Source: a virus. Taken from it: a stretch of 64,000 nt of DNA. Numbering within the stretch: position 1 is the first letter of the stretch; each line of letters opens with the position of its first letter. The DNA lies in IMG/VR virus record IMGVR_UViG_3300023184_000039, positions 1 through 64,000 of that record. One strand, 5' to 3'. This document shows, piece after piece, positions 11,010 to 31,738 of this stretch. Position numbers and translations under genes: made by a program. The notes beneath the pieces were generated by a model. That model was not told the DNA's origin. It did no database searches and saw only the letters and a program-made list of their open reading frames with translations.

Positions 11010-12284
11010 ATGGCTGGCGCTGGCATCCGATTATTTACCGCGGGAGAAATCCTCACTGCGGATTTGGTCAATACATACCTCATGGACCAAGTTGTGCCTC
11101 GTTTTGCCTCGACCACAACTAGAAATGCATCTTTTGGTGGTGCTGGTCAACCAACACTTGGTGCCAGTGATGAGGGAAGACTTTGTTATCTTGACTCAAC
11201 AAACGAACTTCAATATTGGAACGGTAGTACATGGGTGTCAATTGGCGACCAAGCAGTAATCGGAATCATTGCAGCAAAAGGTGATTTGATAGTTGGCACG
11301 ACAGCAAACACCATTACAAATTTAAGTGTTGGTGCCAATGGAAAAGTTCTTACAGCAGATAGCGGTACGGGAACTGGTTTGGCATGGAGTTCTCCAACGG
11401 TTGATGATTTGGCTATTACAAGTGCAAAAATAGCCAACCTCACCATTGTTGACGGGAACATCTCTGCCTCAGCCGCCATCTCTCTTTCCAAGCTTGCCAC
11501 TGGAGCCCTGCCAACCGCAATCACGGTCACGTCGGCAAACATATCCGACCTATCTATTGTCAACGCCGACGTCAGTACTTCGGCTGCGATTGCGTACAGC
11601 AAGTTAAACCTAGGCACATCTATTGTTAATGCAGATATTGCAACTGGTGCCGCAATTGCCGCCTCAAAGATTTCTGGAACAGCGATAACCGCTGCCGACA
11701 CCGGCACTGTAACGAGCACAATGATTGCCGACGGAACCATCGTCAATGCTGATGTAAGCGCTTCTGCTGCGATTGCGCACACTAAATTAGCCGCTGCAAC
11801 TGCTGGTCAGGTGCTTTTGGGGACCACAACTACGGGAGTTGTCACCGCAACAACAGTTTCTGGCGATGTAACAATTACCGGCGCTGGGGTTACGGCAATT
11901 AGTTCTGGAGTGATTGTTGATGCCGATGTCAGTGCAACTGCGGCCATTAGCAGAGGCAAAATTGCCGATATGTCAATTGACACCAAGACAGGAAACTACA
12001 CGCTTGTCCTAACCGACGCCAACAAGTTGATAGAAATGAACCTTACAAGTACAGCGAATACTGTATCTGTACCAACAAATGCATCAGTGGCTTTTCCAAT
12101 CGGAACCCAAATCAACATCACCCAGTATGGAACTGGAAAAACTCAAATAGTTGCCGTAACATCTGGAACGACAAGCATTAGGTCAACACCAGGTTCCTAC
12201 CTACGTGACCGGTACTCATCGGCCACCCTTATCAAAAGGGCTACAGATGAGTGGTATCTGATTGGTGATTTGAGTGCATCGTGA
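11010..12284 (+). CDS. Tail fibre protein (module A)
   Basis: AAKGDLIVGT fibre motif; repeated IVNADVS.SAAIA.SKL units; C-terminal YTLVLTD...W.LIGDLS domain shared with 29245..31737. Confidence 0.8.
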   Translation: MAGAGIRLFTAGEILTADLVNTYLMDQVVPRFASTTTRNASFGGAGQPTLGASDEGRLCYLDSTNELQYWNGSTWVSIGDQAVIGIIAAKGDLIVGTTANTITNLSVGANGKVLTADSGTGTGLAWSSPTVDDLAITSAKIANLTIVDGNISASAAISLSKLATGALPTAITVTSANISDLSIVNADVSTSAAIAYSKLNLGTSIVNADIATGAAIAASKISGTAITAADTGTVTSTMIADGTIVNADVSASAAIAHTKLAAATAGQVLLGTTTTGVVTATTVSGDVTITGAGVTAISSGVIVDADVSATAAISRGKIADMSIDTKTGNYTLVLTDANKLIEMNLTSTANTVSVPTNASVAFPIGTQINITQYGTGKTQIVAVTSGTTSIRSTPGSYLRDRYSSATLIKRATDEWYLIGDLSAS

Positions 12285-12835
12285 TTCCTGGCAATACTTC
12301 TAGTCAGGGAAAGTTTGTCACTGAGCCGACATCTGTTTCGGCTAGTTCTGGTAATGGTGAAGCAACGGTCTCGTTTACATTGCCAACTCGCGTAGGCAAA
12401 GGTACTGCAACTTATTTGGTAACAGCATCGCCCGGCGGTGCTACTGCTAGTGGGGCTAGTTCACCAATAACCATTACTGGTTTAAGCAATGGGACCGCAT
12501 ATACATTTACGGTCACTACGGTTAGTAACTACGGAGTAACCAAGGTTTCCAGTGCTTCAAGTAGTGTTACTCCAGTTGCGCCACCATTCTTCCCACCATT
12601 CTTCCCACCATTCTTCCCACCATTCTTCCCACCACACTTCCCACCAGTATTTGACCCATGCGCTGGGTATACATGCGTTTCATGGCCAGCGGCTGGAATG
12701 TATTTGTACTCTTTTGTTGATTATTCTGGCAACTCAGTGGCCCAAGGTTGTTTCTTTGGTGGAAATTGGAATGCATTTGGCGATGCAAATTGCGGCTGCC
12801 CAGCCACCTATGCGCAGTTTGTATCCTGTGTATAA
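12281..12835 (+). CDS. Fn3-domain protein with (PPxF)6 tract and Cys-rich C-terminal domain (candidate fibre-tip adhesin)
   Basis: GTGA-coupled to the fibre gene; Fn3 (SPITITGLSNGTAYTFTV); PPFF x4, PPHF, PPVF; then a ~60 aa domain with 6 Cys. Confidence 0.8.
   Translation: MIPGNTSSQGKFVTEPTSVSASSGNGEATVSFTLPTRVGKGTATYLVTASPGGATASGASSPITITGLSNGTAYTFTVTTVSNYGVTKVSSASSSVTPVAPPFFPPFFPPFFPPFFPPHFPPVFDPCAGYTCVSWPAAGMYLYSFVDYSGNSVAQGCFFGGNWNAFGDANCGCPATYAQFVSCV
12581..12652 (+). repeat. 12-bp tandem repeat CCACCATTCTTC (4 exact plus 2 variant units)
   Basis: Read directly; encodes PPFF/PPHF/PPVF. Confidence 0.95.
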
Positions 12836-12888
12836 CTAGCTGTTAGTGTGCAAACCACGATTACAAACCGAATCAAAAGGATAAAACA

Positions 12889-13116: not shown

Positions 13117-13125
13117 GATACCGTC

Positions 13126-13428: not shown

Positions 13429-14163
13429 CTATCTTTTGTTGCTAAAGCTAAGATACCCAGCTTTGAATCCACCCCCATACTCCTCTCGACCTTCTGTCAC
13501 GTTTGTGTAGTGTCCTATGACTGCTCGCCTTTCCACCCCACCTACCTGAGGGTGTGCCATATGAAACAACCTTCCATCCCAGTAGAGAACATCACCTTTT
13601 TTGGCATCAAACATAAGAGGGACTAGTTCTTTTGATTTTACTTTTTTGTCAATGTATGTTTTGAGAAATTCAAATAACTTCGTGTCATAGTTGATTCCAT
13701 CCGATTCGGAATTAATAAATTCCTTGATTTCTGGTTCTGATTGAACATCAAGATTGTGGGAACCAGGAATGTATGAGAACAACCCAGAATCAATTTTAAT
13801 ATCCTCTAAAGCCACCCATGCCCCCACACATCTAAAAGTAAGTTTTTCACCGTTGCGAAGCTCTGGGGCCATGTCGTAGTGCCAACTGACACCGTCTTGA
13901 TTCCAGGATATGAAAGATGCATGTATTGCTGGTGGTGAGTCAATCAATTCCAATATGTCTTGACAGATTTCGTCACATAATAATATTTCCAGAATTTCAT
14001 CTGCCTGTTTCCACACTTGGTCGCTATACCCATGCGCATGTTCAAGCAGGGATGCATCAAAAAACGACTGGTGATTGGCTAGGTGCCAATCTATATATTT
14101 ATTGATTTTATCGGCAGATATTCGCGCCTTTTTTATAACAAAACCATCTTCCGAAAAGCCCAT
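13429..14163 (-). CDS. PhyH-family Fe(II)/2OG dioxygenase
   Basis: WHYD, VGAWVALEDI, YIPGSH, KKGDVLYWDGRLFH, distal R. Confidence 0.9.
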   Translation of the reverse strand: MGFSEDGFVIKKARISADKINKYIDWHLANHQSFFDASLLEHAHGYSDQVWKQADEILEILLCDEICQDILELIDSPPAIHASFISWNQDGVSWHYDMAPELRNGEKLTFRCVGAWVALEDIKIDSGLFSYIPGSHNLDVQSEPEIKEFINSESDGINYDTKLFEFLKTYIDKKVKSKELVPLMFDAKKGDVLYWDGRLFHMAHPQVGGVERRAVIGHYTNVTEGREEYGGGFKAGYLSFSNKR

Positions 14164-16128: not shown

Positions 16129-17139
16129 ATGAGTAGGAATAGATATACAGCCACCACCCCGGTAATTAATGAAAAAACGATGCTGGAAATATCCAAGTAT
16201 GAAGTAATCAAACTGGGTGGGGGTGTACTTTGTTTTCGGGGTGCTGTAGATATTGACCAAGACATCGTGCTTCCGTGGATTGATAAGAATGCACAGAAAG
16301 CCCACGAAGGAAGATGGCGTTGGTTTACTGATGAAGATGGAAATAAGTATGCCTTAAACGAGGATGACAATAAATTTACATCAGAACAAATTGACGAAGT
16401 TCCAGTAAGAGTTCTTCAGCCAGTCGTCAACGACACAGAAGAACACATGGAAGTTATGTTTAGGGGTTGGGAAGACTCCATATACAAGTGCCTGATTCGA
16501 TACACGCAAGAGTATGCAATGGTGCTGGGAACAATTTGGTGGAGACAACGCGGTCATATACTTAGGTATGACAAGGGTGACTTACTCGGAATCCACAACG
16601 ACAATGACTCCAACTATCGTTCAACTGGAGGAGAAAGATTTATCCCACAAGGGCAGATGCAAATGAGACAGACGGTTGCCGCAATGCTTTACCTCAACGA
16701 TTGCATGGAGTCACCAGAACTTGTTACTGACAGAACATACTCTGGCGGTCAATTATTTTTTCCGTATTTAGATATTGAGCATCAGGCAAAAACTGGGGAC
16801 ATTTTAATATTCCCAACAAACTTTATTGCAACGCACGGAGTTCGACCCGTAACCGCAGGTGAGCGATACGGTTATCTGGAATTTTTTTCACAGGGTAGCC
16901 CTGACCCAGGGCACTACGTTGAAGTGTATGAACCAGACAAGGTTCCTAGTTGGTGTCCGGCGCACTGGCTGGATAATTACTTTGATGATTTTGCTAAATA
17001 CTCATATTGGAGTGCAAAAAATATGCCAACACCAAAAAACGAAAAAGTGGACAATCTGAATCCAGTTCTTCAAAATCGCTCCCTTGAAGGGAAAAACGGA
17101 TTAGCCAAACCCTACAAACACGCTCGGCCTGCTAGTTAA
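16129..17139 (+). CDS. Prolyl-4-hydroxylase-type Fe(II)/2OG dioxygenase
   Basis: HND, LYLND, GG.LFFP, GDILIFP, HGVRPVTAGERY. Confidence 0.9.
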   Translation: MSRNRYTATTPVINEKTMLEISKYEVIKLGGGVLCFRGAVDIDQDIVLPWIDKNAQKAHEGRWRWFTDEDGNKYALNEDDNKFTSEQIDEVPVRVLQPVVNDTEEHMEVMFRGWEDSIYKCLIRYTQEYAMVLGTIWWRQRGHILRYDKGDLLGIHNDNDSNYRSTGGERFIPQGQMQMRQTVAAMLYLNDCMESPELVTDRTYSGGQLFFPYLDIEHQAKTGDILIFPTNFIATHGVRPVTAGERYGYLEFFSQGSPDPGHYVEVYEPDKVPSWCPAHWLDNYFDDFAKYSYWSAKNMPTPKNEKVDNLNPVLQNRSLEGKNGLAKPYKHARPAS

Positions 17140-17756
17140 TCTAGGGTGTAAAAGTTCGTAACAGCATATTTTTCCCCATCAATCACGGGTGCCGCGGCAT
17201 GCCACTGAAGGGCATCAAAGAAAATAATTGTTCCAGCCTGGGGTTTTATGGACATGATGTCAGGGCTGTATCCGTCTATCTTCTTTGAATAAAAACACAA
17301 TTCCCCACCCGTATAGTTGTCGTTTATATAAAAAACCGAAGATAAATGAACCACTGGAAGATTGTTTTTTTTCACCCAATCGGTAATTGACCAATCTTGA
17401 TGGGCTGGAAGGCATTGCCCATTCTTGTACCTAGCAACACCGCCACCTTGCAGACCTATCATTTTACGGTCATATGTATCAAAAATAAGTTGCTTGCACA
17501 TTATGTTGATTGTTGAAATAATCGCATTAATTTCACCCGACAAATGACTGACCCTGTGAGTACGTAGGACTCCATTTGGTACTGGTGTCATGCCCATTTC
17601 GGCCACCTGTTCATCCGTTATTCCACCGCTTGGACTGAACTCATCAAAATTTCCATATGACGCATTTATGTAAAAGTCTGATTTTTTGAGATACTCGGTA
17701 ATTTTTACAAGGGTCTCACTATTAATAAAATTGGTTCTTATAACTGTGTCAAACAT
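17136..17756 (-). CDS. Prolyl-4-hydroxylase-type Fe(II)/2OG dioxygenase
   Basis: HQD, FYINDNYTGGEL, GTIIFF, HAAAPVIDGEKY. Confidence 0.9.
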   Translation of the reverse strand: MFDTVIRTNFINSETLVKITEYLKKSDFYINASYGNFDEFSPSGGITDEQVAEMGMTPVPNGVLRTHRVSHLSGEINAIISTINIMCKQLIFDTYDRKMIGLQGGGVARYKNGQCLPAHQDWSITDWVKKNNLPVVHLSSVFYINDNYTGGELCFYSKKIDGYSPDIMSIKPQAGTIIFFDALQWHAAAPVIDGEKYAVTNFYTLD

Positions 17757-18339
17757 CTAATCTTTTTCCGTAAAAATAGTTACGCGCAATCTGATGGTCA
17801 ACAACATTGCAGTCAATCCACCAGTCCTCATGTTGTTCTTTCCAAATTAATGTATACCCAAGTCCATCAAGTATTTCCCTTTGGGCATCTCTTGTTGACT
17901 CAAGTCTCCAGTACATATTTGCATCGTGCTCAAACACAATTACATTGAATCTGTACTGTGTTAGTGGAATAGATATAAGACCAAGTAGGGTTGAGTGAGG
18001 GGTGAGCGGCTTAATGTGCGTGTCGTATCCTGCATCAATATCAACTTGCAAATAGTCAATTTGCTTAGGGAAGTCATTCTCCTTGAAATATGATAAATAG
18101 TCAAAATCTAGGGCATCGCCAAAGCATGGGTTTGTTCGATTTGATTCAAATTCTTTTCGTTTTTCCTCAACAATCTCAAAAGAAACCCCACACCATTTAT
18201 AGTCCTTTTCAAGATGATAGGTATTACTACCAATCTTTGAGTCAAAGGCGCCAAGTTCTACATAGCAACCATTTTCTTTGTAGCCACTCATCTCAATTGC
18301 AAACTTTTCTTGACTACTCACCCCAAGATACTTATTCAT
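17749..18339 (-). CDS. FkbM-like SAM-dependent methyltransferase
   Basis: YVELGAFD...SNTYHLEK...W.GVSFE; IDYLQVDID; VIVFEH. Start reassigned to ATG 18339. Confidence 0.8.
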   Translation of the reverse strand: MNKYLGVSSQEKFAIEMSGYKENGCYVELGAFDSKIGSNTYHLEKDYKWCGVSFEIVEEKRKEFESNRTNPCFGDALDFDYLSYFKENDFPKQIDYLQVDIDAGYDTHIKPLTPHSTLLGLISIPLTQYRFNVIVFEHDANMYWRLESTRDAQREILDGLGYTLIWKEQHEDWWIDCNVVDHQIARNYFYGKRLDV

Positions 18340-18340
18340 A

Positions 18341-19114
18341 TCAATTGACAGTGACACTCTTTTGCAGTTGGTGACACTGGGACACGTCAATTCCAACATC
18401 TTTTCTAAATCCATCCACCCATTGGCGTTGGTTGTTTGTGCCATCCTCATTGGGTATGGCGACGGAATCACCATGGGTAAACCACCTAATAAACACCCAC
18501 CTATCTCCGTCCATCACTGGCGAAACTTCATGGCACCCAATGAAGGATGATGGATAAATAAGCATTGAACCATACTTTGGTTTTATTGTCAGACCCCACA
18601 TTCTGAATGCAACTTCACCACCTTCGTACTGGTCGTTTAAAAATAAAACAGATGTAAGCGTGTTTTTTATTGCGGCGAGTGATACTGGTTCAAGGGAGTC
18701 ACCCTGATAAGGAAGCGCCACATCGGAATGAGGGCCAATAGAATGTCCTGGAGAATATCTGAGCAAATGACCAGGTGTTCTGTTGGTTACACATGGGATT
18801 GCGGCTGGAAAAATTTTACAATATTCAAGTAGGCCAACATACGAACATTTATCAAACTCAGAAAACGGCCATTGGTTTTTGGAATTAACATTATACACGT
18901 ATGGCTTTGTGGGAATAATATCATTTTCAATTTCGTATCCACCTTTGTTTATTGATACATCCTTTTTTTCTCCTAGATTATTCAAACCCAAAGAGTAACC
19001 ATGTGGGAGTACCGAGTGACTAATAAAATTCAAAATAGACAAATATGTCCCTGGTTCACCATCCAGGATATCTTCAATGTAAATGATTCCGCCGCCAAGA
19101 TGTTCAGTATTCAC
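18341..19114 (-). CDS. Prolyl-4-hydroxylase-type Fe(II)/2OG dioxygenase
   Basis: HSD, FLNDQYEGGE, YPSSFIGCHEVSPVMDGDRW. Confidence 0.9.
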   Translation of the reverse strand: MNTEHLGGGIIYIEDILDGEPGTYLSILNFISHSVLPHGYSLGLNNLGEKKDVSINKGGYEIENDIIPTKPYVYNVNSKNQWPFSEFDKCSYVGLLEYCKIFPAAIPCVTNRTPGHLLRYSPGHSIGPHSDVALPYQGDSLEPVSLAAIKNTLTSVLFLNDQYEGGEVAFRMWGLTIKPKYGSMLIYPSSFIGCHEVSPVMDGDRWVFIRWFTHGDSVAIPNEDGTNNQRQWVDGFRKDVGIDVSQCHQLQKSVTVN

Positions 19115-20067: not shown

Positions 20068-20823
20068 TTAATCTTTAATAAATATGGTCTTTCCGTCCTG
20101 CACTGAATGGAAGACAAATCCATTCAGGGATAGTAAATATTTATGCATTTTCCAATAGGATTGATTGACAGTTGCAACACTATAAAGTCTTCTGGAATCA
20201 CTGCTGTTCTTCAATACTAGATACCCTCCATGTTTTAGAGAGTCAGTAAGTTTTTTCAACAATTTTGTATTTTGATGTACTTCCATTGCTTGAATTGATA
20301 TAAGTGAAAATTTCTCTGATTCATTTGCATTGGGGTCAATATCGTCATAAGATAATGCACTGTATGAATGATTCTTTGTCACATCGTACTCATCTCGAAT
20401 AAAGTTTTCATATACATACAACGAGTCATTGTTGATAAGACTCCATTTTGTATCTATATTTTTTGATTGCGCTAAAGCAAGAAATTGTATTTCGTGCATT
20501 ATGGACAAATGACCAGAAATCAAAATGTTACTTCTATCTGCGGCCAGGGTCTCAATGAAGTAAGACCTTGCACTTAATTCACCAACAGTAACAAATCCAA
20601 TATTTTTTGTGGCGAGCACATCGTAAAGCATCATCTCTGGGTCGTGGGGTGGGCGAGCAATAAGCCGCTTGTCAAGATTTAATGTATTTCTATGGTCAAC
20701 AACATTTTGACAAATTTCACCCTCTATTTCAACAAGATTCAAACCACTATATTTTGTTGTTGAATTTGTTGAAATTGCTACAGCAACACCAGCAGTAACA
20801 CTGTTCTTGGAGTTTTCAGCCAT
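20068..20823 (-). CDS. Hypothetical protein, possible degenerate class I SAM methyltransferase
   Basis: FSLISI...LLKKLTDSLKHGGYLVL resembles post-motif-IV MTase elements; no clear GxGxG. Confidence 0.4.
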   Translation of the reverse strand: MAENSKNSVTAGVAVAISTNSTTKYSGLNLVEIEGEICQNVVDHRNTLNLDKRLIARPPHDPEMMLYDVLATKNIGFVTVGELSARSYFIETLAADRSNILISGHLSIMHEIQFLALAQSKNIDTKWSLINNDSLYVYENFIRDEYDVTKNHSYSALSYDDIDPNANESEKFSLISIQAMEVHQNTKLLKKLTDSLKHGGYLVLKNSSDSRRLYSVATVNQSYWKMHKYLLSLNGFVFHSVQDGKTIFIKD

Positions 20824-21124
20824 TTTTTATACCTCTAGCAATACTTAACGACCAATTTGCCAATCGAATTTCTTGACTTAATCCAAGTCTTGTTTTAAGC
20901 AAATATGCTTTCGCGCTATGTAAATTACTTCCATAAACATTTACATCTCTTGCACCAGTAATTTCATCAATTTCATTTATGACAACATCAATGGCTGGAA
21001 GAGTGGATGAATCAATGTAGGCCCCAGAAGCCATAGCAATAACAATATATTTGTATGTTGATTGCTCTATGTCCGCATCAACATCGTAGATATTGGCATC
21101 TGTTGGCTCCCATGTTTTTATCAT
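20816..21124 (-). CDS. Hypothetical protein
   Basis: In a tightly coupled operon. Confidence 0.65.
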   Translation of the reverse strand: MIKTWEPTDANIYDVDADIEQSTYKYIVIAMASGAYIDSSTLPAIDVVINEIDEITGARDVNVYGSNLHSAKAYLLKTRLGLSQEIRLANWSLSIARGIKNG

Positions 21125-21568: not shown

Positions 21569-21818
21569 CTCTCAAATTTGCAATTTGTTCTTCGAGTTTT
21601 TCAACTTGCAAACCCAAACTTTTGATATGTTCATGGTTTGGGAGGGGGGTGGAATCGGCACCAACTGCTGGGGTGAATGTTTTTGGTTCAAATGCATCTG
21701 TATCCATTTCTTCTGTGAGCAAAAGCAAAAATAGGCGATTTTTCAGTGTCGTAAGAGCGTCGTTATATATCGACAACTTTCGTGAGTCCGATAGGTTGAA
21801 TTCCATTGCATCTCCCAA
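21561..21818 (-). CDS. Hypothetical small helical protein
   Basis: Likely start MEFNL (GGAG RBS); C-terminal coiled coil. Confidence 0.65.
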   Translation of the reverse strand: MGDAMEFNLSDSRKLSIYNDALTTLKNRLFLLLLTEEMDTDAFEPKTFTPAVGADSTPLPNHEHIKSLGLQVEKLEEQIANLRGE

Positions 21819-21923: not shown

Positions 21924-22592
21924 TTACTCGTAGTGAAACAACCCATTGGACAGGGCTACTGGCGGGCACTCTTTGTGCCAAAGGTTGATTACAAGCACGC
22001 TTCTTTTTCCAGATACCACCGGTGTAGTCCCATGGACAGTGTGCCCAGCATCAAACATTATCAACCTATTGGGACTACAAAAGATTCTTTCGCGCTCCTC
22101 AATTGGTGACGGTTCTATTTTCTCAAGACCATCCTGGGTTCCATTTTTGACAATGGTTTTATGTATTTCCAGATAGCCACCTTCCACCCCAGTATTGGTG
22201 TTTGGATAATATACCGAACCCCAGTGTGGTCCGTTCAATATTTTTGTATTTGCATATTCAAAAGTATCCTCATCTAGATGGGGTGGCAAATTCTGACCAA
22301 CTTCAAAAGTCCGAGCCCAGTACTCAAACCCAAGAACATCCTCCTCAGCAAAAGGCATGTTGGGTCGCCAGATAGCCTCAATCAAAATTTTTGCAGTTGT
22401 ATTGGCGCTACCCTTCCACCAACCATCCCAAAACATGTATGGAGCAAATACCTTTGCACCAGGTTCGTGGTATTGATTTAACCTAGAACCAATGCCCTCT
22501 TCGTTCCCCATCGATTGAGGGAACAAATTCCTATCATTCTTAATCAAGGATAGTAATTTTTCATCTTTGATATAATTATCAATAACAAGCAT
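21924..22592 (-). CDS. Fe(II)/2OG dioxygenase (prolyl-hydroxylase-like)
   Basis: FEYW...PHLDED...GSVYY...GGYL...NRLIMFD...HGT.....G.RSVLVINLW. Confidence 0.85.
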   Translation of the reverse strand: MLVIDNYIKDEKLLSLIKNDRNLFPQSMGNEEGIGSRLNQYHEPGAKVFAPYMFWDGWWKGSANTTAKILIEAIWRPNMPFAEEDVLGFEYWARTFEVGQNLPPHLDEDTFEYANTKILNGPHWGSVYYPNTNTGVEGGYLEIHKTIVKNGTQDGLEKIEPSPIEERERIFCSPNRLIMFDAGHTVHGTTPVVSGKRSVLVINLWHKECPPVALSNGLFHYE

Positions 22593-22636: not shown

Positions 22637-23338
22637 TTATGTTGGTTCATTTAGCTTTGGGAGACCGGTAAACGATGGTCCAATTTTATTTCCATCAGCA
22701 TCAATTCCAGTCCTAATGCCCCTTGTCCATGTCCAGGGGTTATTCTTGTTGTTGGCCATTTTCATATTACCGTATTTTTGTCTACTTTTCATTAGTTCTG
22801 GTTTATCCCAAAGGTTTTCAACCACGAACTCAGTGTTTTCGTGAACCAAACTATCAAACATTGAAAAAAACATAAACGGCATTCCGGCCTCAAAGGTCAC
22901 TGGTTCTCCAACTTTGGTGATTGCCCAGTTCATCTGAAATTCGTCTGGCCACCAACTACTTGGGATTATCGCAGACAACGGTGATGCTCCATCAACTAGA
23001 TAGTTTGGTGAACCACCAATCCATGTCTCGTATCCATCTTCCGTACCAAAGGCCCATCCAGTCGAAAACGAAACCATTCCGATTATCCCGCCGTAGGCAA
23101 TTTGACGACCCTCATACTCCGCTCCAGAAATTATTGTTGGCACAGTGTTCCCACCGTCCCACTTCGCAACAACATCCTGCTGGAGGATTAACTCCCACCC
23201 ATAGACATTTGCATACGTCATCGGAAGACACTGGTATGCATGCTTGTTGTATGTGTTATCCATCCATTCACGCTTAATCCGTGATTGTTTTATCTCTGGT
23301 GGATTTTGTGTTGTTCTTGTTAATGTAAATTTAGGCAT
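22637..23338 (-). CDS. DUF6065-like protein
   Basis: REWMD.T..KHAY.CLP...AN..GWEL N-terminal signature; F.MNW....G.PV.F..G.PF. Confidence 0.75.
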   Translation of the reverse strand: MPKFTLTRTTQNPPEIKQSRIKREWMDNTYNKHAYQCLPMTYANVYGWELILQQDVVAKWDGGNTVPTIISGAEYEGRQIAYGGIIGMVSFSTGWAFGTEDGYETWIGGSPNYLVDGASPLSAIIPSSWWPDEFQMNWAITKVGEPVTFEAGMPFMFFSMFDSLVHENTEFVVENLWDKPELMKSRQKYGNMKMANNKNNPWTWTRGIRTGIDADGNKIGPSFTGLPKLNEPT

Positions 23339-23975
23339 TGTAACCAGAACTGGGCTTTATGTCGTGATTCCTGTCATTGTAGTCAAACATGGTGACCGCA
23401 ACATACTTCGTTCCGCTTGTTACTGGTTTTGATGCATGAGCATAGGTGTATGTTGATGGGAACATAATTATGTCACCAGCTTTTGGCGTGTATGTCAAGT
23501 CCATGAATGGAAACCATAATTCCCCACCATCATAACCATCATTAAGGTATAGAACGGAAGAAACGGTGCAGGTGTAGGAGAATCCATGGTCGGTGTGAAC
23601 CTGAAAATGCTGTCCAGTGTTATAGCGAACATAATTGATTGCCTCCATGTATTCCATGGTTATGTTGTAGCGCGACTGATAGTCGGATAAGCATTTTTGC
23701 AAACAAGTTTTCGTGTCCCCATAGATACTCCTCAGTCCTTCAAACTGAGGAGGGAGATGCTGCATGTGCATCTCACCAATTTTGCAGTCAACACAGTCTC
23801 GGTATTCTGGCATTTTTTGGCTATGCCCAACCAATGCCTCCATCCACATGTATGGGGATGTTTGGCTATTGCCGACTGCTTCCTCAAGTCTTTGGGGAAT
23901 GCTTAATTCCACGGGTATTGCATTCGTGTATACGATTATGGCCAACTTTGGGTCACCTAAAAAGTAATTTTCCAT
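23331..23975 (-). CDS. Prolyl-4-hydroxylase-type Fe(II)/2OG dioxygenase
   Basis: HTD, LYLNDGYDGGEL.F, GDIIMFPS...HASKPVTSGTKY. Confidence 0.9.
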   Translation of the reverse strand: MENYFLGDPKLAIIVYTNAIPVELSIPQRLEEAVGNSQTSPYMWMEALVGHSQKMPEYRDCVDCKIGEMHMQHLPPQFEGLRSIYGDTKTCLQKCLSDYQSRYNITMEYMEAINYVRYNTGQHFQVHTDHGFSYTCTVSSVLYLNDGYDGGELWFPFMDLTYTPKAGDIIMFPSTYTYAHASKPVTSGTKYVAVTMFDYNDRNHDIKPSSGYNA

Positions 23976-24057: not shown

Positions 24058-24960
24058 ATGAGCATGATTCAAGAGGGTGTATCGGCGCAAAATGAAGTGA
24101 TTCTGCCGATATCCATATATGACATATCCGTGTCATCGGCTGATGGAAAGAAAAAAGATATCCTTTCTGGTCGACACGGCAAGGTGACTCTTATATTTAA
24201 TGTTGCGGCTGGTTGTGGGAATATCCCCCAACATTCAGTCCTTGAGGAACTACGACAAATCTACAAAGATGAAAAAGACTTTGACATTATTGCCATCACG
24301 GTTGATGACTTTACCTGCCACGGCTACCCAGAATTTCAAAACGGCTTAAAGGCTTACGCTGAGGCAAACAACCTAGACATGACCGAAGGACAGGTGGCCC
24401 AGTATTATGCCGAAACCAATTTTGGAACGACATTTGAATTCACCGAACTGACAAACGGAAGATACGACAAACACAATTACAGCGATGGGTATAGTCCGAC
24501 AAGGGATAAAATCCAAGAGATGCATCCATTGTGGTCCTACTTGACCGGTGCATATAGCGCAGATATGGGTGACAATGGGCTTCCGTATAGCGTTGAAGAA
24601 GTTCCATGGTCAGATGAAAAACCAAACTATCAACCCAACAAAAAGCCTTACGACCCACTAACGGGCAACTTCACCAAGTTTTTAATTGACAGAACTGGAA
24701 CAAAAGCTACACGCTATGCAAGTGGGTTCCTGCTTGGGGAGAGGGATATCAATAATCACACATTTCCTTGGGTCACAGAAAAATACCAACCCAATGGAAA
24801 GCGTGACTGGATGCCGGTAACAGAAGAAGGAAAAGACCTCAATGCACATTTAAAAGTTGAAAGTGATACAGGTGTGTGGCCAGCCAAATGGCAAAGGGAC
24901 GGAATTGACCACTCACTAGAAATAATCAAGACTGACATAGATAGGTATTTACTTTCATGA
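24058..24960 (+). CDS. Glutathione-peroxidase-like protein (Cys type)
   Basis: GKVTLIFNVAAGCG...Q...LEEL; HPLWSYL; NFTKFLIDRTG. Confidence 0.8.
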   Translation: MSMIQEGVSAQNEVILPISIYDISVSSADGKKKDILSGRHGKVTLIFNVAAGCGNIPQHSVLEELRQIYKDEKDFDIIAITVDDFTCHGYPEFQNGLKAYAEANNLDMTEGQVAQYYAETNFGTTFEFTELTNGRYDKHNYSDGYSPTRDKIQEMHPLWSYLTGAYSADMGDNGLPYSVEEVPWSDEKPNYQPNKKPYDPLTGNFTKFLIDRTGTKATRYASGFLLGERDINNHTFPWVTEKYQPNGKRDWMPVTEEGKDLNAHLKVESDTGVWPAKWQRDGIDHSLEIIKTDIDRYLLS

Positions 24961-25721
24961 CGTTGACCGAACAACATGTTTCCACAAAAACTGTGTTGAC
25001 CAATGAACAAATATTAGATTTCCAAACTAATGGATTTCTAGTTTTAGAAAAATTCATAACACCAGAATTGATTGATGCCCACATGAGCAACCCGAAACGA
25101 AACCATTCGGAAAAAGTTGACCATAAAGCAGATGGTTCAGTTCTAAATATACTCTGTGGGGATGAAGTTCAGGAAGTACTCAAACAACTGGATTACGGTG
25201 TTGCCCTCCATTCTGCCGTAACGTACGAAACCAGTTCGGAAAAACCGTGGCATCAAGACGTGGTTCTTACATCAAAATTTGGTGGTGCGCAATATGTTGG
25301 AGTTTGGGTTGCTTGTGAGGATATTTCCGAAGATAGTGGGCCGTTTCAATTAATCCCAGGTTCTCACAAGTGGGATATTGATTACAAGAATGTCTATGAT
25401 TTACCAGAAGAAGAATTGGCAGTGGGTTCACAGAAAAGAATAGAACTTGAAGTTGAGAAAAGAAAATTGGACTCAAGAGTGTTTAAGTTTCATGCAAAAA
25501 AGGGAGACATTATAGTCTGGCATGGACAATTATTCCATTCTGCAGCGACACCAACAAACAGAAATTCAACAAGAAAATCCTTAACTGGACATTATTGCAA
25601 TGCATATGCGCACAATCGGCAAAATGAAAGCCCCCCAACAGTGGATTTCATCTTAAAGCAGATGGATTCGTTAACCGAGATGTATGCTCGCAACAATAGT
25701 GGTGGTTACTACTTCCTTTAA
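24957..25721 (+). CDS. PhyH-family Fe(II)/2OG dioxygenase
   Basis: F..NGFLVL, WHQD, VGVWVACEDI, LIPGSHKW, KKGDIIVWHGQLFH, R.SL. Confidence 0.9.
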   Translation: MTLTEQHVSTKTVLTNEQILDFQTNGFLVLEKFITPELIDAHMSNPKRNHSEKVDHKADGSVLNILCGDEVQEVLKQLDYGVALHSAVTYETSSEKPWHQDVVLTSKFGGAQYVGVWVACEDISEDSGPFQLIPGSHKWDIDYKNVYDLPEEELAVGSQKRIELEVEKRKLDSRVFKFHAKKGDIIVWHGQLFHSAATPTNRNSTRKSLTGHYCNAYAHNRQNESPPTVDFILKQMDSLTEMYARNNSGGYYFL

Positions 25722-25728
25722 ACATCTT

Positions 25729-26289
25729 ATGGCAAATGTTGGAATAGTTTCCCTTGGCTCAATGGGCACATCATTGGCATACTCGTTATCTATTTCTGGG
25801 CATAACCTATTCTGGGCATCAGATGGTCGTTCAGAAAAAACGAAGATGAACAAAACACTGCTTGCAAATAACGATATTTTGGTATCTGATGTAGGTAATA
25901 TTTCGGAACTTTCCAAAAAGTGCGAATTCATATTCTGTGTTGGACGAGTGAATATCGCCGAAGAAACCGTGATTAGTCTGAAGGATGCTGATTACTCTGG
26001 GGTTCTCGTGGATTGCAACACCCTGTGGGACGAAGTTGAGGAGAATAGATACTACGAATTGCTGAATGATTCAAAAATTCAGTATGTAGATTGTGCCCTG
26101 AGGGGATATCCAATTAATATCGGTTCTTTGAGCGACGGACTTAAAAGGGTGATGCTATTGAGCGGCCAAAAATCCGACAATGTAGCCGAGTTGTTTTCCG
26201 ACGGAATATGGAAAACGGTTATCAGTGAGAATAAAGTAAAGAGTTACAATCGATGGATTACCGCAAATGCACCGGATATGGATTTATAA
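25729..26289 (+). CDS. NAD(P)-binding Rossmann protein (6PGD / 3-hydroxyisobutyrate dehydrogenase N-domain)
   Basis: NVGIVSLGSMGTSLA; LVDCNT; YVDCAL.G.P; appears to lack the C-terminal helical domain. Confidence 0.7.
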   Translation: MANVGIVSLGSMGTSLAYSLSISGHNLFWASDGRSEKTKMNKTLLANNDILVSDVGNISELSKKCEFIFCVGRVNIAEETVISLKDADYSGVLVDCNTLWDEVEENRYYELLNDSKIQYVDCALRGYPINIGSLSDGLKRVMLLSGQKSDNVAELFSDGIWKTVISENKVKSYNRWITANAPDMDL

Positions 26290-26935: not shown

Positions 26936-27784
26936 TCAGATGAAATTCTTGTACTTTTCCACCACGCTTGGGATGATTGTTCCAGTGCCATTTTCATTAA
27001 GATAAACATATGGACGCAGTAGTTTTCCATTCTGTTTACTTATTTCCGTCCATTCTTCAATTCCATATGTGGCAACATTTTTGTGCCATTCTTCTGTTCC
27101 AGCAAATGGATATTTAATAAAATTCCGTGCCATAATTTTATCTCCCCCAGTAACACATTTTACAGAATGAAAATACGGCTTTCCACCTGGGAATAATGGC
27201 GAACCAGACGGGAAAACTAAAATATCTCCAGATTTTGGTTTATATGTAAATACTTTATCCAAAACAAAAAATTGAATTTCTCCACCGTCATAGTCATCTC
27301 CTAGGTAGGTAATACAGGTTATAAGAAATTTTTCCCCAGGAGAACCCATTGATTCTATTTGAAAATCAGAATGATACCCCATTGCTAGATTTCCAAAAAG
27401 TGCATCATTGGAACGTTCTTGAATTATTTTATATCTGGCGAGGCTTGGAGTCGTAACAAAAGAACCATCCGGCAATGGGACGTTGTTTGATGTTACATAA
27501 TTTGACATAGCACAGGATGTTGCCAATCCCAGTGATTCGTGTAGGAAAAACTCATCCACAAATTCACCATTGACCGTAATTGTCTCACCTAGCAATTCTA
27601 CTTTTTCGCTTGAGTATTTACCAAATGAAAGCCAGTCTGTCCACTCTTCATATATATATTTACCTTTATGAATTTGTTCTGAGTTGCGTATTATATTAAG
27701 AAGGTGCTCGTGGTTTGGAAGTAGTTTTCGGTAGACACAAATCAAATCGTGAATGTATTCTTTTTCAAAATTTAACCCAAACAT
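26936..27784 (-). CDS. Prolyl-4-hydroxylase-type Fe(II)/2OG dioxygenase
   Basis: HSD, YLGDDYDGGEI.F, GDILVFPS...YFHSVK.V..GDK. Confidence 0.9.
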   Translation of the reverse strand: MFGLNFEKEYIHDLICVYRKLLPNHEHLLNIIRNSEQIHKGKYIYEEWTDWLSFGKYSSEKVELLGETITVNGEFVDEFFLHESLGLATSCAMSNYVTSNNVPLPDGSFVTTPSLARYKIIQERSNDALFGNLAMGYHSDFQIESMGSPGEKFLITCITYLGDDYDGGEIQFFVLDKVFTYKPKSGDILVFPSGSPLFPGGKPYFHSVKCVTGGDKIMARNFIKYPFAGTEEWHKNVATYGIEEWTEISKQNGKLLRPYVYLNENGTGTIIPSVVEKYKNFI

Positions 27785-28488
27785 AGTTCATTCTCCCTTA
27801 CTGTTTCGTAGAGTTCGTGGTCAATGCTATTCAATTTTAATATTTCAGAAATTTCGGATTTGCTCAATTCAAAACCAATACGAGGAGAAACATTAGAATG
27901 AATATTGGCAACTGGTGAACCTAGAATATTTTCTATTTTTGCAATTATCGCATTTCTGTTTTCTAGAGTAAAAATATCAATATTGTTATCACGTATTGAT
28001 TCAAAAACTTTTTCAATCGGCGGTGATTTTGGCAAATGTAGTAAACCATATTCATCTGTGTAGGTTTTTGTTGACAAATACGAACTTTGCATATTTTCTT
28101 CCCCATCAAATCCAGCAAATTCGTAATCTTTTATTTTTGGGTGTGTTCCATACACAAATTTTAAAAATAGTTTTTTATTGGATAGATTTTCCAAATTATG
28201 ACGATGGTGATATGCAAACAGACTCATAAGTCTAGAAACTGGTTCTCGAATAATTGAAAAAGAATAGTCAAACTGAAGATATTCAAATGGGTCTAAGGCA
28301 AAATGCCCGCAAAGATAGTACTTTGGGTGTTGTTGAAAGAGTAATTTTGGTTTTCCGCTCACACCCCAAAAATCTCTACCACCAGAAACTCGGGGAGCAG
28401 ATTTATTTTTTTGTATTTCTGTAGTTAGGGATGTACCAGAAGTTTTTGGTATGTGAAGAAAGTACACAGCACTGTATTCTTTTTCCAT
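27772..28488 (-). CDS. Sulfotransferase family protein
   Basis: FLHIPKTSGTS (5'-PSB loop) and REPVSRLMS (3'-PB) PAPS-binding motifs; D.ELYE at the C-terminus. Confidence 0.85.
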   Translation of the reverse strand: MEKEYSAVYFLHIPKTSGTSLTTEIQKNKSAPRVSGGRDFWGVSGKPKLLFQQHPKYYLCGHFALDPFEYLQFDYSFSIIREPVSRLMSLFAYHHRHNLENLSNKKLFLKFVYGTHPKIKDYEFAGFDGEENMQSSYLSTKTYTDEYGLLHLPKSPPIEKVFESIRDNNIDIFTLENRNAIIAKIENILGSPVANIHSNVSPRIGFELSKSEISEILKLNSIDHELYETVRENELCLG

Positions 28489-28509
28489 GCCACAAACATA
28501 CCATTCTTA

Positions 28510-29241
28510 TTATTTAAAAGATGGCGGAAAGTGTGGTGGGAAAAACGGGGGAAAAAACGGGGGAAAGAATGGAGGAAAGTGTGGAGGGAAGAATGGCGGA
28601 AAGAACGGTGGGAAGTGTGGGGGGAAAAACGGCGGGAAAAACGGCGGGAAGTGTGGTGGGAAGAACGGAGGAAAGAACGGAGGAGCAACTGGGGTAACTG
28701 AGTTTGATGCTGCCGATGTTGCCGTACCGTATGCCGTAGAAGCCGTGACGGTGAATGTATAAGCCTGGCCGTTAGTAAGACCCGTAATACTGATTGGCGA
28801 TGCCCCAGTGCCTGTGAGCCCGCCTGGTGACGACGTGGCAGTATATGTTGCAGACCCTGCTGTTCCGGTGGAGTTGGCAGTGTATGCAACGGTTGCCGTG
28901 GTGTTTCCTGCACTAGCAGAACCAATGGTTGGTGCTGTTGGTCCAACACCCATTACGAGCGATGGGCTTGCAGATGAAGCAGCAGACTCAACACCGCTTG
29001 AAGAAATTGCAACAACAGTGAAGGTTCTTGTTGTTCCTGCCGTCATTCCGGTTACGGTAATTGGGCTAGATGCACCAGTTGCTGTTTGTCCTGAATCGGA
29101 AGTTGCTCTATAGGTAAGGGTACCTTTACCTGTATACGCAGGGGCGGTAAAGAATACATCGGCAGAAGTTCCAGATTTAAGCGTGGGTGTACCAATGGTC
29201 GGTACACCTGGAATTTTCCCGCCTGAATCCTTTGTTGCCAT
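28510..29241 (-). CDS. Tandem-Fn3 protein with C-terminal (PPxF)14 tract (candidate fibre-tip adhesin)
   Basis: Two Fn3 repeats (SPITVTGMTAG..TFTV; SPISITGLTNGQAYTFTV) followed by 14 PPFF/PPHF/PPSF units; directly downstream of a fibre gene. Confidence 0.85.
   Translation of the reverse strand: MATKDSGGKIPGVPTIGTPTLKSGTSADVFFTAPAYTGKGTLTYRATSDSGQTATGASSPITVTGMTAGTTRTFTVVAISSSGVESAASSASPSLVMGVGPTAPTIGSASAGNTTATVAYTANSTGTAGSATYTATSSPGGLTGTGASPISITGLTNGQAYTFTVTASTAYGTATSAASNSVTPVAPPFFPPFFPPHFPPFFPPFFPPHFPPFFPPFFPPHFPPFFPPFFPPFFPPHFPPSFK
28516..28683 (-). repeat. Codon-diversified 12-bp repeat, 14 units, encoding PPxF
   Basis: Read directly; synonymous variation in Pro and Phe codons; higher-order period PPFF-PPFF-PPHF. 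Confidence 0.95.
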
Positions 29242-29244
29242 AAG

Positions 29245-31737
29245 TTATGCCGAAATGTCTCCCACCAATACCCATGTATCGGTTGCTCTCTTCACGAGAG
29301 TAGCATATGACCACTGTGTTCTCATCTTGAGCCCTGGGGCAGCGTTGATTGTCACCCCCGCACCAGCGGTGACCGTTGTTTGGCCAGCACCGGTTTGAAG
29401 GATGTTTATCTGCGAGCCAATCGCATAGGCAACAGACGCGTTTGGGGGCACTGTGAGCGTATTTGCCGTAGCGACACCCATTTCCACAATCTTGTTTTTG
29501 TCAGCCAATACAAGCGTATAGGAGGCTGTCTGGGCACTTGTTGAAACGTCGGCCAACTTACCAAGGTCAATTGCGGCAGTTGTTGAAATATCGGCATTAG
29601 CGATAGTTCCGTCAAGAATCATCGTACTTGTTACTGTGCCTGATGGGAGAGTTACCGTACCAGTGAATGTTGGTGATGCCAATTTGGCATAACCCTGACC
29701 CACGACATATGCGGTGGTTGCAATTTGCGTAGTGTTTGTATCAACAGCGGCAGTAGTTGATAGTGGTGTTCCTGTAAAAGTCGGTGAAGCAAGAGGTGCT
29801 TTCAGGCCGATACTTGTTGTCAGTGTTGTGGAAAGGTTTGCATCGTTTCCAAGTGCAGTAGCAATTTCCCCAAGAGTATCCAGCGTTGCGCCAGCAGTTC
29901 CGACGAGTGCTGCGACTTCTGCACGAACAAATGCCGTAGTAGCAACTTGCGTTGTATTCGTTGATGTTGCTGCTGTTGGTGCAGTTGGGGTTCCAGTCAG
30001 TGCTGGTGAAGCAAGTGGAGCAAAACCAGAAATTGAAGCACCAGAAGGAATTGTTACTGTGCCCGTAAAAGTTGGGCTTGCAAGATTCGCTTTCAGGTTA
30101 TCCGCCGTAGTAACAAAAGCGGTAGTAGCCACGGCGGTTGTGCTATTAGCAGCAGTTTGGGTGGTAGCAATGGTTCCTGTTGGAAGTGTTGGGGTTCCCG
30201 TGAAGGTGGGTGAAGCAAGTAATGCATAACCAGCAGCGTTCACCCATGCTGTACCGTTCCACTTAAGTAAATCACCACTGGTTGGAGTTGGTGCGGTTAC
30301 ATCGGAAAGGTCATCAAGTTGGTCAACCGTTGCGACACCCGCCGATACTGCTGCATCAACATATGCCGTAGTAGCAACTTGTGTTGTATTAGTAAGAGCA
30401 GAAGCGGTTGGTGCAGTTGGGGTTCCAGTCAGTGCTGGAGAAGCCAACGGCGCAAAACCCGAAATGGAAGCGCCAGAAGGAATTGTTACAGTTCCTGTGA
30501 ATGTCGGTGAAGCAAGGTTTGCTTTGAGGTCAAGCGCGGTCTGTGTTGCCGTAGAAATTGGCTTGTTTGCATCGGAAACATTATCAACAAGGTTCAAACC
30601 GACCATTGATGCCGTAATACCACTGACGGTTCCAGTGAAGGTCGGGCTGGCGATTGGTGCGGCATCGGTTATTCCAAAACCGCTTAGTGTTGTTGGATTT
30701 GTTCCACCAGTTACGCGGCCATAAGTATCTACTGTTACGGACTTGTATGTGCCAGTACTGGATACACCGCTTGCTAGGTCAATCGAATCTGCATTAACGA
30801 CAATTCTGCCAGATGATGCAGTTGCAACATTGACAGTATTACCACTAAACGAAAGTCCGTCGCCAGCAACAAATGTTGATGTACCAGTAAATTGGGTAAA
30901 TGTGATTGCGTCCGTATTTACGATGTGTGCATCGCCTGTTCCTGTTCCAGACGATGAAACAACAAATCCTTGTCCAGCATTTGTTGCGCCGTTTACAACA
31001 TAAACAGCCTCGCCTGAAGAAATTACGCCTACGCCGGCGCTTGAATCAAAGTCCGAGACTCTAGTGAGAACAAATGGAACGCTTACTGAGCCTTGGTTGG
31101 TTACTACATAGATTCCATTTTGAACACCAGATGCTTGGTTCTTTACAAGTACGCGCTGATTGGTAGTGGTGTTAATGCCATCAATCTGCAATCTTGCATT
31201 TGATGTTCCAGTCAATGTTGCACCAACACCAGCCGTTCCATTGCTGTATGTTGGCGTATACGGAAGAGCTGCAGTTGTGGCTTGATTAACCGAATCATGC
31301 CAGTTGAGACCAGAAGATGTTGCTTCAACATAGGCTCTTGTTGCTATAACCGAAGTGTTGACAGCAACCGTAGGTGATGCTTCTTCTCCAGAGTTGTTGG
31401 AAAGGGTAATTCCAGTTCCAGCCGTAAGTGATGCAACATAACTACCAACAGTGTCTGTCGCAAGGTTTACGGCATCATTAATCCAAGCCGTGCCGTTCCA
31501 ACGAAGGAAGTCTCCGTTGGCAGCACTAGTGATGGTGACATCTTTGAGGTCGTTGAGGTTTCCTTCACTCAATTCTGCCGTGATTGAGTAAGGCAGGGCA
31601 GTCCATGCATTGGTGTTGTTGCCAATCTTGAATTTGCCAGTGTCTGTTTCATAACCTAATTCACCAGTGGTGAGGGTTGGGTTGTTTGATGTCCAGTTGG
31701 CTGCTGTATCTCTTCTAAACCTAATTCGTGTTGACAT
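29245..31737 (-). CDS. Long tail fibre protein (module B) with Mtd_N-like N-terminus
   Basis: RIRFRRDTAANWTSNNPTL..GELGYETDTGKFKIG N-terminus; ASPTFTG repeats; internal duplication; C-terminal domain paralogous to 11010..12284. Confidence 0.85.
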   Translation of the reverse strand: MSTRIRFRRDTAANWTSNNPTLTTGELGYETDTGKFKIGNNTNAWTALPYSITAELSEGNLNDLKDVTITSAANGDFLRWNGTAWINDAVNLATDTVGSYVASLTAGTGITLSNNSGEEASPTVAVNTSVIATRAYVEATSSGLNWHDSVNQATTAALPYTPTYSNGTAGVGATLTGTSNARLQIDGINTTTNQRVLVKNQASGVQNGIYVVTNQGSVSVPFVLTRVSDFDSSAGVGVISSGEAVYVVNGATNAGQGFVVSSSGTGTGDAHIVNTDAITFTQFTGTSTFVAGDGLSFSGNTVNVATASSGRIVVNADSIDLASGVSSTGTYKSVTVDTYGRVTGGTNPTTLSGFGITDAAPIASPTFTGTVSGITASMVGLNLVDNVSDANKPISTATQTALDLKANLASPTFTGTVTIPSGASISGFAPLASPALTGTPTAPTASALTNTTQVATTAYVDAAVSAGVATVDQLDDLSDVTAPTPTSGDLLKWNGTAWVNAAGYALLASPTFTGTPTLPTGTIATTQTAANSTTAVATTAFVTTADNLKANLASPTFTGTVTIPSGASISGFAPLASPALTGTPTAPTAATSTNTTQVATTAFVRAEVAALVGTAGATLDTLGEIATALGNDANLSTTLTTSIGLKAPLASPTFTGTPLSTTAAVDTNTTQIATTAYVVGQGYAKLASPTFTGTVTLPSGTVTSTMILDGTIANADISTTAAIDLGKLADVSTSAQTASYTLVLADKNKIVEMGVATANTLTVPPNASVAYAIGSQINILQTGAGQTTVTAGAGVTINAAPGLKMRTQWSYATLVKRATDTWVLVGDISA

Positions 31738-31738
31738 A

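Follow-up and report, generated by a model that had tools for sequence, protein, structure and literature searches.

Genes for 2-oxoglutarate (2OG)-Fe(II) oxygenases and P4HA are among the most-counted "auxiliary metabolic genes" (AMGs) of aquatic viromes, and their use by phages was still called cryptic in a 2022 virome paper (PMC9301287). The closest published system to the one described here is the dioxygenase array gp41-gp54 of cyanophage Syn9 (Iyer, Abhiman, de Souza, Aravind 2010), which was proposed to serve secondary-metabolite synthesis, with no protein substrate named (PMC2938197). We analyzed the first 64 kb (positions 1 to 64,000; hereafter the window) of IMG/VR virus record IMGVR_UViG_3300023184_000039, a complete virus genome of 140,645 bp with direct terminal repeats. 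An island at positions 11,010 to 31,737 carries at each end a tail-fibre gene followed by a gene for a fibronectin type III (Fn3) protein with a run of Pro-Pro-x-Phe units (the PPxF tract), and between these pairs an array of oxygenases of the prolyl 4-hydroxylase (P4H) type. The Syn9 array has been without a named substrate since 2010; here, the tract provides a concrete, co-encoded candidate.

Like the island, the Syn9 array belongs to an aquatic myovirus and places many classical 2OG oxygenases directly after fibre genes. One of its products is a small dUTPase-fold protein with a conserved Cys (PMC2938197), and Syn9 gp43 weakly matched the profile of DUF6065, a family that is also present in the island. 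The Syn9 array differs in containing two tryptophan halogenases and a JmjC-type enzyme and in lacking sulfotransferase-like, GPx-like and di-iron genes, and its oxygenases show only marginal sequence similarity to those of the island. No PPxF tract was found in Syn9, P-SSM2 or S-SCSM2R. Among the Syn9 fibre genes, gp36 (L487:3856-4806) encodes a 316-aa Gly-rich, Cys-containing low-complexity protein. It lies upstream of the dioxygenase array, with gp37-gp40 in between, and may be a counterpart of the PPxF protein.

Other described systems share single features with the island. For PBCV-1, the work of Eriksson et al. (1999), as cited in PMC9301287, links a viral P4H (vCPH, PDB 5c5t) with viral Pro-rich repeats. 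Here, too, one virus encodes both a P4H and short Pro-rich-repeat proteins, and vCPH was among the top structural matches of the island oxygenase ox6; PBCV-1, however, is a eukaryotic giant virus whose single P4H compares with eight to ten enzymes here, and it lacks both a fibre-adjacent cassette and a partner of the DUF6065 family. The PBCV-1 repeats are PAPK-type, not aromatic. Iyer et al. (2010, PMC2938197) also predicted bacterial operons for hydroxylation and sulfation that include collagen-like or phage tail-collar proteins. These operons combine genes for 2OG hydroxylases, PhyH and a sulfotransferase with one for a repetitive structural protein, for which hydroxylation followed by sulfation was proposed. 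They are themselves predictions and have never been linked to PPxF repeats; their substrates are collagen-like or rich in Gly, and their enzymes are of the beta-hydroxylase family. Plant extensins and mussel foot proteins consist of Pro-rich and aromatic-rich repeats with hydroxylated prolines and form stiff or adhesive extracellular material. They offer an analogy only, as they share no substrate homology with the tract and are eukaryotic and secreted. We found no description of the module in the literature on PPFF repeats, DUF6065 and phage hydroxyproline; it is a new form of aquatic-phage dioxygenase arrays and of viral P4H with Pro-rich repeats, both of which were already known.

The initial annotation of the window had placed the same two-gene module, fibre followed by Fn3-PPxF protein, at both ends of the island, and the open reading frames (ORFs) were as it gave them. 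Both pairs are transcribed inward, towards the island interior:

11010..12284, plus strand: fibA, tail fibre of 424 aa (PHROG minor tail protein 8780, E 3e-18)
12281..12835, plus strand: fn3A (Pfam fn3 30.5 bits, cut-off 25)
12581-12652, plus strand: PPxF tract DNA of fn3A, a tandem 12-nt repeat with 96% matches
28510..29241, minus strand: fn3B (Pfam fn3 24.4 bits, borderline; 62% identical to fn3A)
28516-28683, minus strand: PPxF tract DNA of fn3B, 14 units
29245..31755, minus strand: fibB, long tail fibre of 836 aa (Mtd_N 48.6 bits; PHROG tail fiber 454, E 3e-44)

The start of fn3A overlaps the end of fibA by 4 nt. The two fibres share the expected YTLVL...GD.S domain, their C-terminal 144 aa being 51% identical (E 4e-36). 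The Fn3 domains of fn3A and fn3B are 62% identical, and homologues of fn3B carry PF00041. In fn3A, the Fn3 domain is followed by PPFF x4, PPHF and PPVF (6 units) and then by a Cys-rich C-terminal domain, while in fn3B a pair of Fn3-like domains precedes 14 PPxF units, and the protein terminates in ...PPSFK. The tail of fn3B is 57 aa long, and its tract contains neither Lys nor Arg. Both tracts, of 6 units on the plus strand and 14 on the minus strand, proved to be coding repeats. At the DNA level the fn3A tract is 96% repetitive and is a young 12-nt repeat. The DNA of the fn3B tract is 72-80% repetitive, yet its peptide repeat is kept exactly; this synonymous variation indicates that the reading frame is under selection. 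The likeness to T-even gp37/gp38 that had been drawn did not extend beyond gene order, as no Pfam or PHROG profile match named gp37 or gp38, and the label "virion adhesin" for the Fn3-PPxF protein is a conjecture drawn only from gene position and the Fn3 domain.

All of the 2OG oxygenases expected between the gene pairs, eight of the prolyl-hydroxylase type and two of the PhyH type, were present. The eight P4H-type genes (PF13640, cut-off 27 bits) and the DUF6065 gene are as follows:

16129..17139, plus strand: ox1 (PF13640 35.8 bits)
17136..17756, minus strand: ox2 (PF13640 50.7 bits)
18341-19114, minus strand: ox3 (PF13640 47.1 bits)
19104-20027, minus strand: ox4 (PF13640 46.8 bits)
21924..22592, minus strand: ox5, divergent 2OG oxygenase (no Pfam match; aligns with its paralogues and keeps H, D, H and R)
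22637..23338, minus strand: DUF6065 protein (PF19541 146.3 bits, cut-off 26.6)
23331..23975, minus strand: ox6, core prolyl-4-hydroxylase-like protein (PF13640 49.5 bits)
26297-26923, minus strand: ox7 (PF13640 25.2 bits, just below the cut-off)
26936-27784, minus strand: ox8 (PF13640 30.6 bits)

Six of the eight (ox1, ox2, ox3, ox4, ox6 and ox8; 30.6-50.7 bits) exceeded the PF13640 cut-off, and every PF13640 gene of the 140.6-kb genome lies within the island. The HxD...H motif (H127, D129 and H180 in ox6 numbering) is invariant in 8/8 paralogues, with K or R at +10 from the distal His. The same three residues and the basic position are also invariant in 34 ox6 homologues. ox7 and ox8 gave PDB sequence matches to P3H1 and BaP4H, and the divergent ox5 is conserved in at least 13 related loci.

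We then examined whether such tracts and enzymes occur together, as the initial annotation had anticipated. Scanning 2.9 million viral contigs with a DNA pattern encoding PPFFPP[FHYL]FPP yielded at least 120 loci, whose ~5-kb flanks were scored using the window proteins as probes. Homologous oxygenases were detected in the flank at 76 of the 120 tract loci listed. A control set of 120 loci, chosen with a (PT)n linker pattern, of similar length and scored identically, gave only 6. When only loci with at least 6 kb of flank were considered (n = 60), an oxygenase was present in 44 and lay within 2 kb of the tract in 39. The recurring order was fibre, tract protein, ox7-type, ox6-type, DUF6065 and further oxygenases, the ox7-type gene usually being the oxygenase nearest to the tract gene. 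Among 23 tract records without a flank oxygenase, 14 have PF13640 elsewhere on the record, mostly in 5-11 copies, and the remaining 9 are fragments (4-31% complete). The enzyme-side search via ox6 gave 70 loci (43-72% identical), and a tract gene was found in the same order in 38 of the 40 such loci of at least 12 kb. By sequence comparison, then, PPxF tracts and the prolyl-hydroxylase-type cluster are linked far beyond chance, in both search directions and among close relatives.

The close relatives were sampled by the large terminase (TerL 79-100% identical), and near-complete genomes were kept:

G000, G003, G040, G043: cassette present; PPxF tract yes; DUF6065 yes; 6-10 Pfam-detected PF13640 genes
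G001, G002, G004, G041, G042, G056: cassette absent; PPxF tract no; DUF6065 no; 1-2 PF13640 genes

Tract and cluster were thus jointly present or jointly absent in every near-complete genome sampled. On the TerL tree the cassette trait is scattered and requires about four changes, at least two of them on well-supported branches. The island-less relatives retain the fibre gene and the Fn3 gene that follows it: the fn3A orthologue of G001 has (PPVT)3 in place of PPxF, and the Fn3 proteins of G002 and G004 have no Pro-rich tail. Because the fibre and Fn3 genes are kept while the tail is replaced or gone, loss of the cassette is not only a matter of block deletion. We propose that this lake myovirus can dispense with the island, a cassette that would make and tailor a fibre-associated protein.

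An additional search was anchored on the fibre C-terminal domain. In the proteins recovered, the linker after a conserved ...SVTPVA consists of PPxF units, (PPVx)n, poly-Thr or poly-Pro. Enzyme-rich loci that seemed to be tract-less carried the long tract on the opposite side of the cluster, within the same record, and records with only (PPVx)n or poly-Pro had a single oxygenase. Two island-less relatives, G001 (L271:3308-4396 and L272:1198-2607) and G056 (G056:C1, ~131.4 kb), have a (PPVT)n/(PPVx)n Fn3 protein alongside just one two-domain oxygenase of ~450-470 aa, in which the P4H domain is C-terminal. This pairing may be a minimal form of the system.

For ox6, the PDB sequence match was to the P4H of B. 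anthracis (E 4e-7), and identity to cyanophage oxygenases was only 24-41%. It was the only one of the oxygenases to be folded, and the AlphaFold2 (AF2) model had a predicted local distance difference test (pLDDT) score of 92. Its top Foldseek matches were Chlamydomonas P4H (Cr-P4H; 2jig/3gze, including the (Ser-Pro)5 complex), PBCV-1 vCPH (5c5t), PHD2, 4iw3 and 5hv0, with bacterial P4Hs among them (E 5e-10 to 5e-8, TM 0.55-0.70). The model indicates that ox6 has a double-stranded beta-helix fold that is nearest to protein prolyl hydroxylases. Co-folding of ox6 (34-row alignment) with fn3B residues 175-243 gave a score of 0.01, which is evidence neither way.

DUF6065 always lies directly after an ox6-type gene. 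Its AF2 model (pLDDT 92) aligned in VIA with dUTPases at a Z score of 10.1 and a root-mean-square deviation of 2.6-5.6 A over 115-130 residues, and the top 22 chains all belonged to the dUTPase/dCTP deaminase superfamily. Sequence identity to dUTPases is 10-16%, and the residues conserved in the family include R23, W25, H33, C37, P39 and N44. The protein thus has a dUTPase-like fold according to the model, and we do not classify it as a dUTPase. DUF6065 is not a cupin. Bacterial DUF6065 genes on large contigs of metagenome-assembled genomes (MAGs; 30-32% identical) had no oxygenase neighbour detectable with the window proteins. "MAG" matches to DUF6065 at 57-74% identity represented the same phage module. 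Correspondingly, the fibre, tract and oxygenase module was seen in MAG bins named Cyclobacteriaceae, Acidibacter, Gammaproteobacteria and Verrucomicrobiales (L399-L403). These contigs are probably phage contigs swept into bins, so the bin names are no guide to the host.

To describe the tract itself, we compared 153 distinct tract ORFs. The tracts are composed of 46% Pro, 42% Phe, 5% Tyr and 1.4% His, and the x of PPxF is Phe in 66%, Tyr in 20% and His in 7%. Tract length has a median of 51 aa and a maximum of 333 aa. The protein ends within 8 residues of the tract in 72 of the 153, and in 54 of those 72 the last residue is a single Lys (...PPSFK, ...GPGFK, ...FK), as in the window at 28510-28515. 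A Cys-rich domain follows the tract in 22 ORFs, and in some multi-domain proteins of 900-1000 aa the tract is an internal linker. Nine tract proteins, including L007, L031, L032, L044, L086, L094, L095 and L102, have a Cys-initiated domain (C[IV]..DT..[IV]) directly after the repeat, with weak Hint_2, intein-splicing and PT-HINT matches that are all below the cut-off. If this domain self-cleaves, these nine proteins would also end in a free tract, like the 72.

The carriers of the tract are therefore diverse, comprising Fn3 proteins, short non-Fn3 proteins, proteins in which it precedes a Cys-rich or Hint-like domain, and 900-aa proteins, and oxygenases were still present on records of every carrier class. 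As far as these comparisons go, the enzymes go with the tract and not with its carrier protein. At least 2948 metagenome protein clusters are related to fn3B. Where named, nearly all are "hypothetical protein"; one is an NCBI "fibronectin type III domain-containing protein", and a few have unrelated automatic JGI names. Comparison of tract composition (His, Tyr, end motif) with the presence of sulfotransferase, GPx, PhyH, ox8, methyltransferase-like and Rossmann genes gave nothing convincing beyond a weak His-Rossmann trend.

Since related phages carry the tails and the enzymes together or lack both, this phage probably hydroxylates its own fibre-associated proteins. That the PPxF tract is the substrate of the co-encoded hydroxylases is the best-supported reading from comparative genomics, and we favor it by a modest degree. 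The initial annotation had made this proposal, and the comparative association, catalytic motifs and prolyl-hydroxylase fold speak for it; this support is genomic and structural, not chemical. Under this scheme, each tail-fibre gene precedes a gene for a small Fn3 protein with a C-terminal run of Pro-Pro-aromatic-Phe units, and the neighbouring P4H-type Fe(II)/2OG oxygenases would hydroxylate the prolines of this tail inside the infected cell. The core set would consist of the ox7 type and the ox6 type with its dUTPase-fold DUF6065 partner, while the many paralogues may differ in the position or stereochemistry that they serve and might extend to other residues. The GPx-like, Rossmann, PhyH, di-iron, sulfotransferase-like and methyltransferase-like proteins would be lineage-specific helpers or provide further tailoring. 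The modified tail would then sit with the fibre. The gene content, the intact catalytic motifs, the fold, the conserved adjacency and the co-variation of tract and cluster were observed; the tract as substrate, the residue modified, the presence of the product in the virion and its role in adsorption are inferences.

Several points weigh against this reading. The tract gene and the enzymes are contiguous and a single insertion or deletion can move both, so their co-loss is partly trivial, and the conserved gene order may partly reflect descent. The sample of near-complete genomes is small (4 vs 6), and TerL may not track the whole of a mosaic genome. Relatives without a PPxF tract still have 1-2 P4H-type genes near the fibre genes, and such oxygenases also occur in the tract-less cyanophages Syn9, P-SSM2 and S-SCSM2R; the same enzyme class in tract-less phages means that other substrates exist in phages. 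Known P4Hs prefer X-Pro-Gly, poly-Pro or Ser-Pro contexts, and we know of no precedent for Pro-Pro-Phe-Phe as a P4H substrate. Hydroxylation of the tract is a prediction from sequence, and the homologous Syn9 array was published as a small-molecule biosynthesis system (PMC2938197).

The last of these points leads to the view that the oxygenases form a metabolic island, for small molecules or directed at the host, which happens to lie in the variable region by the fibre genes. It might yield hydroxylated amino acids, peptides or lipids or shift the host 2OG/succinate balance, with the PPxF tail being an unmodified, stiff, hydrophobic spacer. The Syn9 array of 10 dioxygenases and a dUTPase-fold protein was read as secondary-metabolite genes (Iyer et al. 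2010, PMC2938197), phages without any tract have the same oxygenase class, and the island includes PhyH-type enzymes as well as members of the FA_desaturase family, for which the nearest named relatives have carotenoids or free arginine as substrates. However, few related islands have desaturase or PhyH genes, and no nonribosomal peptide synthetase (NRPS), ATP-grasp, precursor-peptide or export genes were seen among the island ORFs. A metabolic role would also leave unexplained the 12-fold enrichment with a peptide motif, the tract gene as immediate neighbour in most loci, and the Fn3 orthologue without an aromatic tract exactly where the cluster is absent, and we consider it unlikely.

The fold and motifs, which point to protein prolyl hydroxylases, are also in keeping with enzymes that act on other proteins, such as fibre shafts, Fn3 or Cys-rich domains, or other virion or host envelope proteins, the tract then serving for docking or recruitment or being merely co-inherited. 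Even in Syn9, with a Gly-rich protein as neighbour in place of a PPxF protein, the array comes after fibre genes, and (PPVx)n or poly-Pro linkers are accompanied by single oxygenases. Yet island-bearing and island-less relatives share the repeats and the C-terminal domain of their fibres. Co-variation is confined to the aromatic tract, DUF6065 and cluster size, and among Pro-rich low-complexity elements the tract alone follows the cluster through widely differing carriers. Such substrates seem rather improbable. We regard as more doubtful still the idea that the Fn3-PPxF protein is a non-virion fibre assembly factor, or a lysis or envelope-interacting protein, with a tail modified or used only in the cell. 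Genes for fibre assembly chaperones, too, typically follow directly on a fibre gene, and with 46% Pro and 42% Phe the tail is of extreme hydrophobicity, but Fn3/Ig-like domains are typical of exposed virion decorations, and some carriers are the 900-1000-aa multi-domain proteins in which the tract is an internal linker.

If the tract is indeed the hydroxylase substrate, this would be the first case in which a phage encodes a system to hydroxylate a phage structural protein, and the scoring of these genes in virome surveys would change. The joint presence or absence of tract and cluster in every near-complete genome sampled makes the substrate question testable, and the candidate substrate can be made as a peptide, for example (PPFF)3 or (PPFFPPFFPPHF)2. 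In a bolder extension, to which we give only a small chance, several regio-specific hydroxylases of lake and other aquatic myoviruses would turn the tract into a fibre-tip polymer of poly-hydroxyproline, possibly with hydroxylated Phe, His or Tyr and sulfated or methylated in some lineages, forming an extensin-like or mussel-glue-like adhesive or a hydrated rod. This product would set host recognition or virion stability, and the abundant and long-unexplained 2OG-Fe(II) oxygenase/P4HA "AMGs" of aquatic viromes would be virion-maturation enzymes rather than metabolic ones.

The remaining island genes are listed below. The GPx-like, Rossmann and two membrane di-iron genes were present as the initial annotation had listed them, as was the DUF6065 gene.

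12889-13116, plus strand: g75, small conserved gene
13126-13356, plus strand: g76, CxxC...CxxC zinc-ribbon-like (phrog_13558, E 6e-17)
13429..14163, minus strand: PhyH-type 2OG oxygenase 1 (PF05721 62.1 bits, cut-off 22)
14282-15214 and 15196-16119, plus strand: membrane di-iron hydroxylase/desaturase genes (PF00487, ~90 bits each)
17749..18474, minus strand: possible FkbM-like methyltransferase (Atlas feature lead only)
20068..21818, minus strand: g251 and small ORFs g102, g68, g82 and g85 (g251: weak TPP_enzyme_C match only)
24058..24960, plus strand: GPx-like thiol peroxidase homologue (PF00255 30.6 bits; NCBIfam glutathione peroxidase E 4e-10)
24957..25721, plus strand: PhyH-type 2OG oxygenase 2 (PF05721 78.1 bits, cut-off 22)
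25684..26289, plus strand: Rossmann NAD(P)-binding protein (PF03446 23 bits; weak NCBIfam matches)
27772..28488, minus strand: sulfotransferase-like protein (PHROG 3347 galactose-3-O-sulfotransferase E 2e-9, residues 3-110)

In many loci g76 recurs between the tract gene and the oxygenases, and the GPx-like gene, whose match is confined to the N-terminal part, is often the first after the tract gene. g251, g82 and g85 have homologues in related islands. The PhyH genes keep HxD (WHYD, WHQD) and are of the hydroxylase type, not halogenases. Three His boxes are visible in both PF00487 genes (HGAAHGH, HMDHH, HLVHH and equivalents), which also gave weak NCBIfam matches to CrtR and to the arginine hydroxylase GntB.

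Two assignments stood only in part. The sulfotransferase-like gene lies directly downstream of fn3B as described and matches PHROG 3347, but its Pfam match to Sulfotransfer_2 is below the cut-off (16.5 bits, cut-off 22; E 0.009); the sequence contains a PKTSGTS motif resembling a 5'-phosphosulfate-binding (5'-PSB) motif. The FkbM-like methyltransferase had no Pfam, NCBIfam, PHROG or PDB-sequence match, leaving a language-model lead, namely an Atlas feature score of 0.97 to a cluster with PF05050 in 52% of its members; its likely true start is M46, at ~18339. The sulfotransferase-like gene was found in 15 tract-bearing loci of the two scans, and methyltransferase-like, Rossmann, PhyH and desaturase genes were rarer across related loci. 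Judged by their occurrence in a minority of related loci, the sulfotransferase, methyltransferase-like, PhyH and di-iron genes are accessories and not core. The GPx-like and Rossmann genes likewise count as accessories. Because the sulfotransferase- and methyltransferase-like genes are not core, sulfation and methylation of the tract remain guesses, and the suggestion that it is "then sulfated or methylated" is conjecture. Separately, a PAPS-reductase-family gene (phrog_2302, E 3e-76) lies at 54565-55704 (minus strand) of the same genome.

The initial comparison with a cluster for ribosomally synthesized and post-translationally modified peptides (RiPPs) is best kept as an analogy, as no leader peptide, peptidase or exporter was found among the island ORFs and none of the small ORFs had the look of a precursor peptide. 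The candidate substrate is the tail of a folded-domain protein, unlike a short RiPP precursor.

By its gene content the source phage is an uncultured lake myovirus, with large terminase, portal, tail sheath and baseplate wedge genes all downstream of the island. Lake-water and freshwater metagenomes from at least three studies contain its DNA, and no RNA data set was among those listed as carrying the stretch. Against cultured phages, the island gave no DNA-level match by megablast, and fn3B and DUF6065 gave no match by tblastn. Directly upstream of the island, at 7134-10904 (minus strand), lies a 1256-aa ORF with an N-terminal signal-like segment, long Thr-rich linkers, an Asn-rich repeat region that looks beta-helix-like by eye, acidic repeats of helical type and a hydrophobic segment at the C-terminus; its Pfam matches are weak and all sub-threshold. 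Contigs of four lake runs showed no insertions or deletions in tract length, and assemblies frequently break within the tract. In one lake metagenome, summed contig depth in the tract bins (28516-28717) reached up to ~1000 times that of the flank. Similar PPFF-coding repeats occur on many contigs of other organisms in that metagenome and are evidently very common in lake samples.

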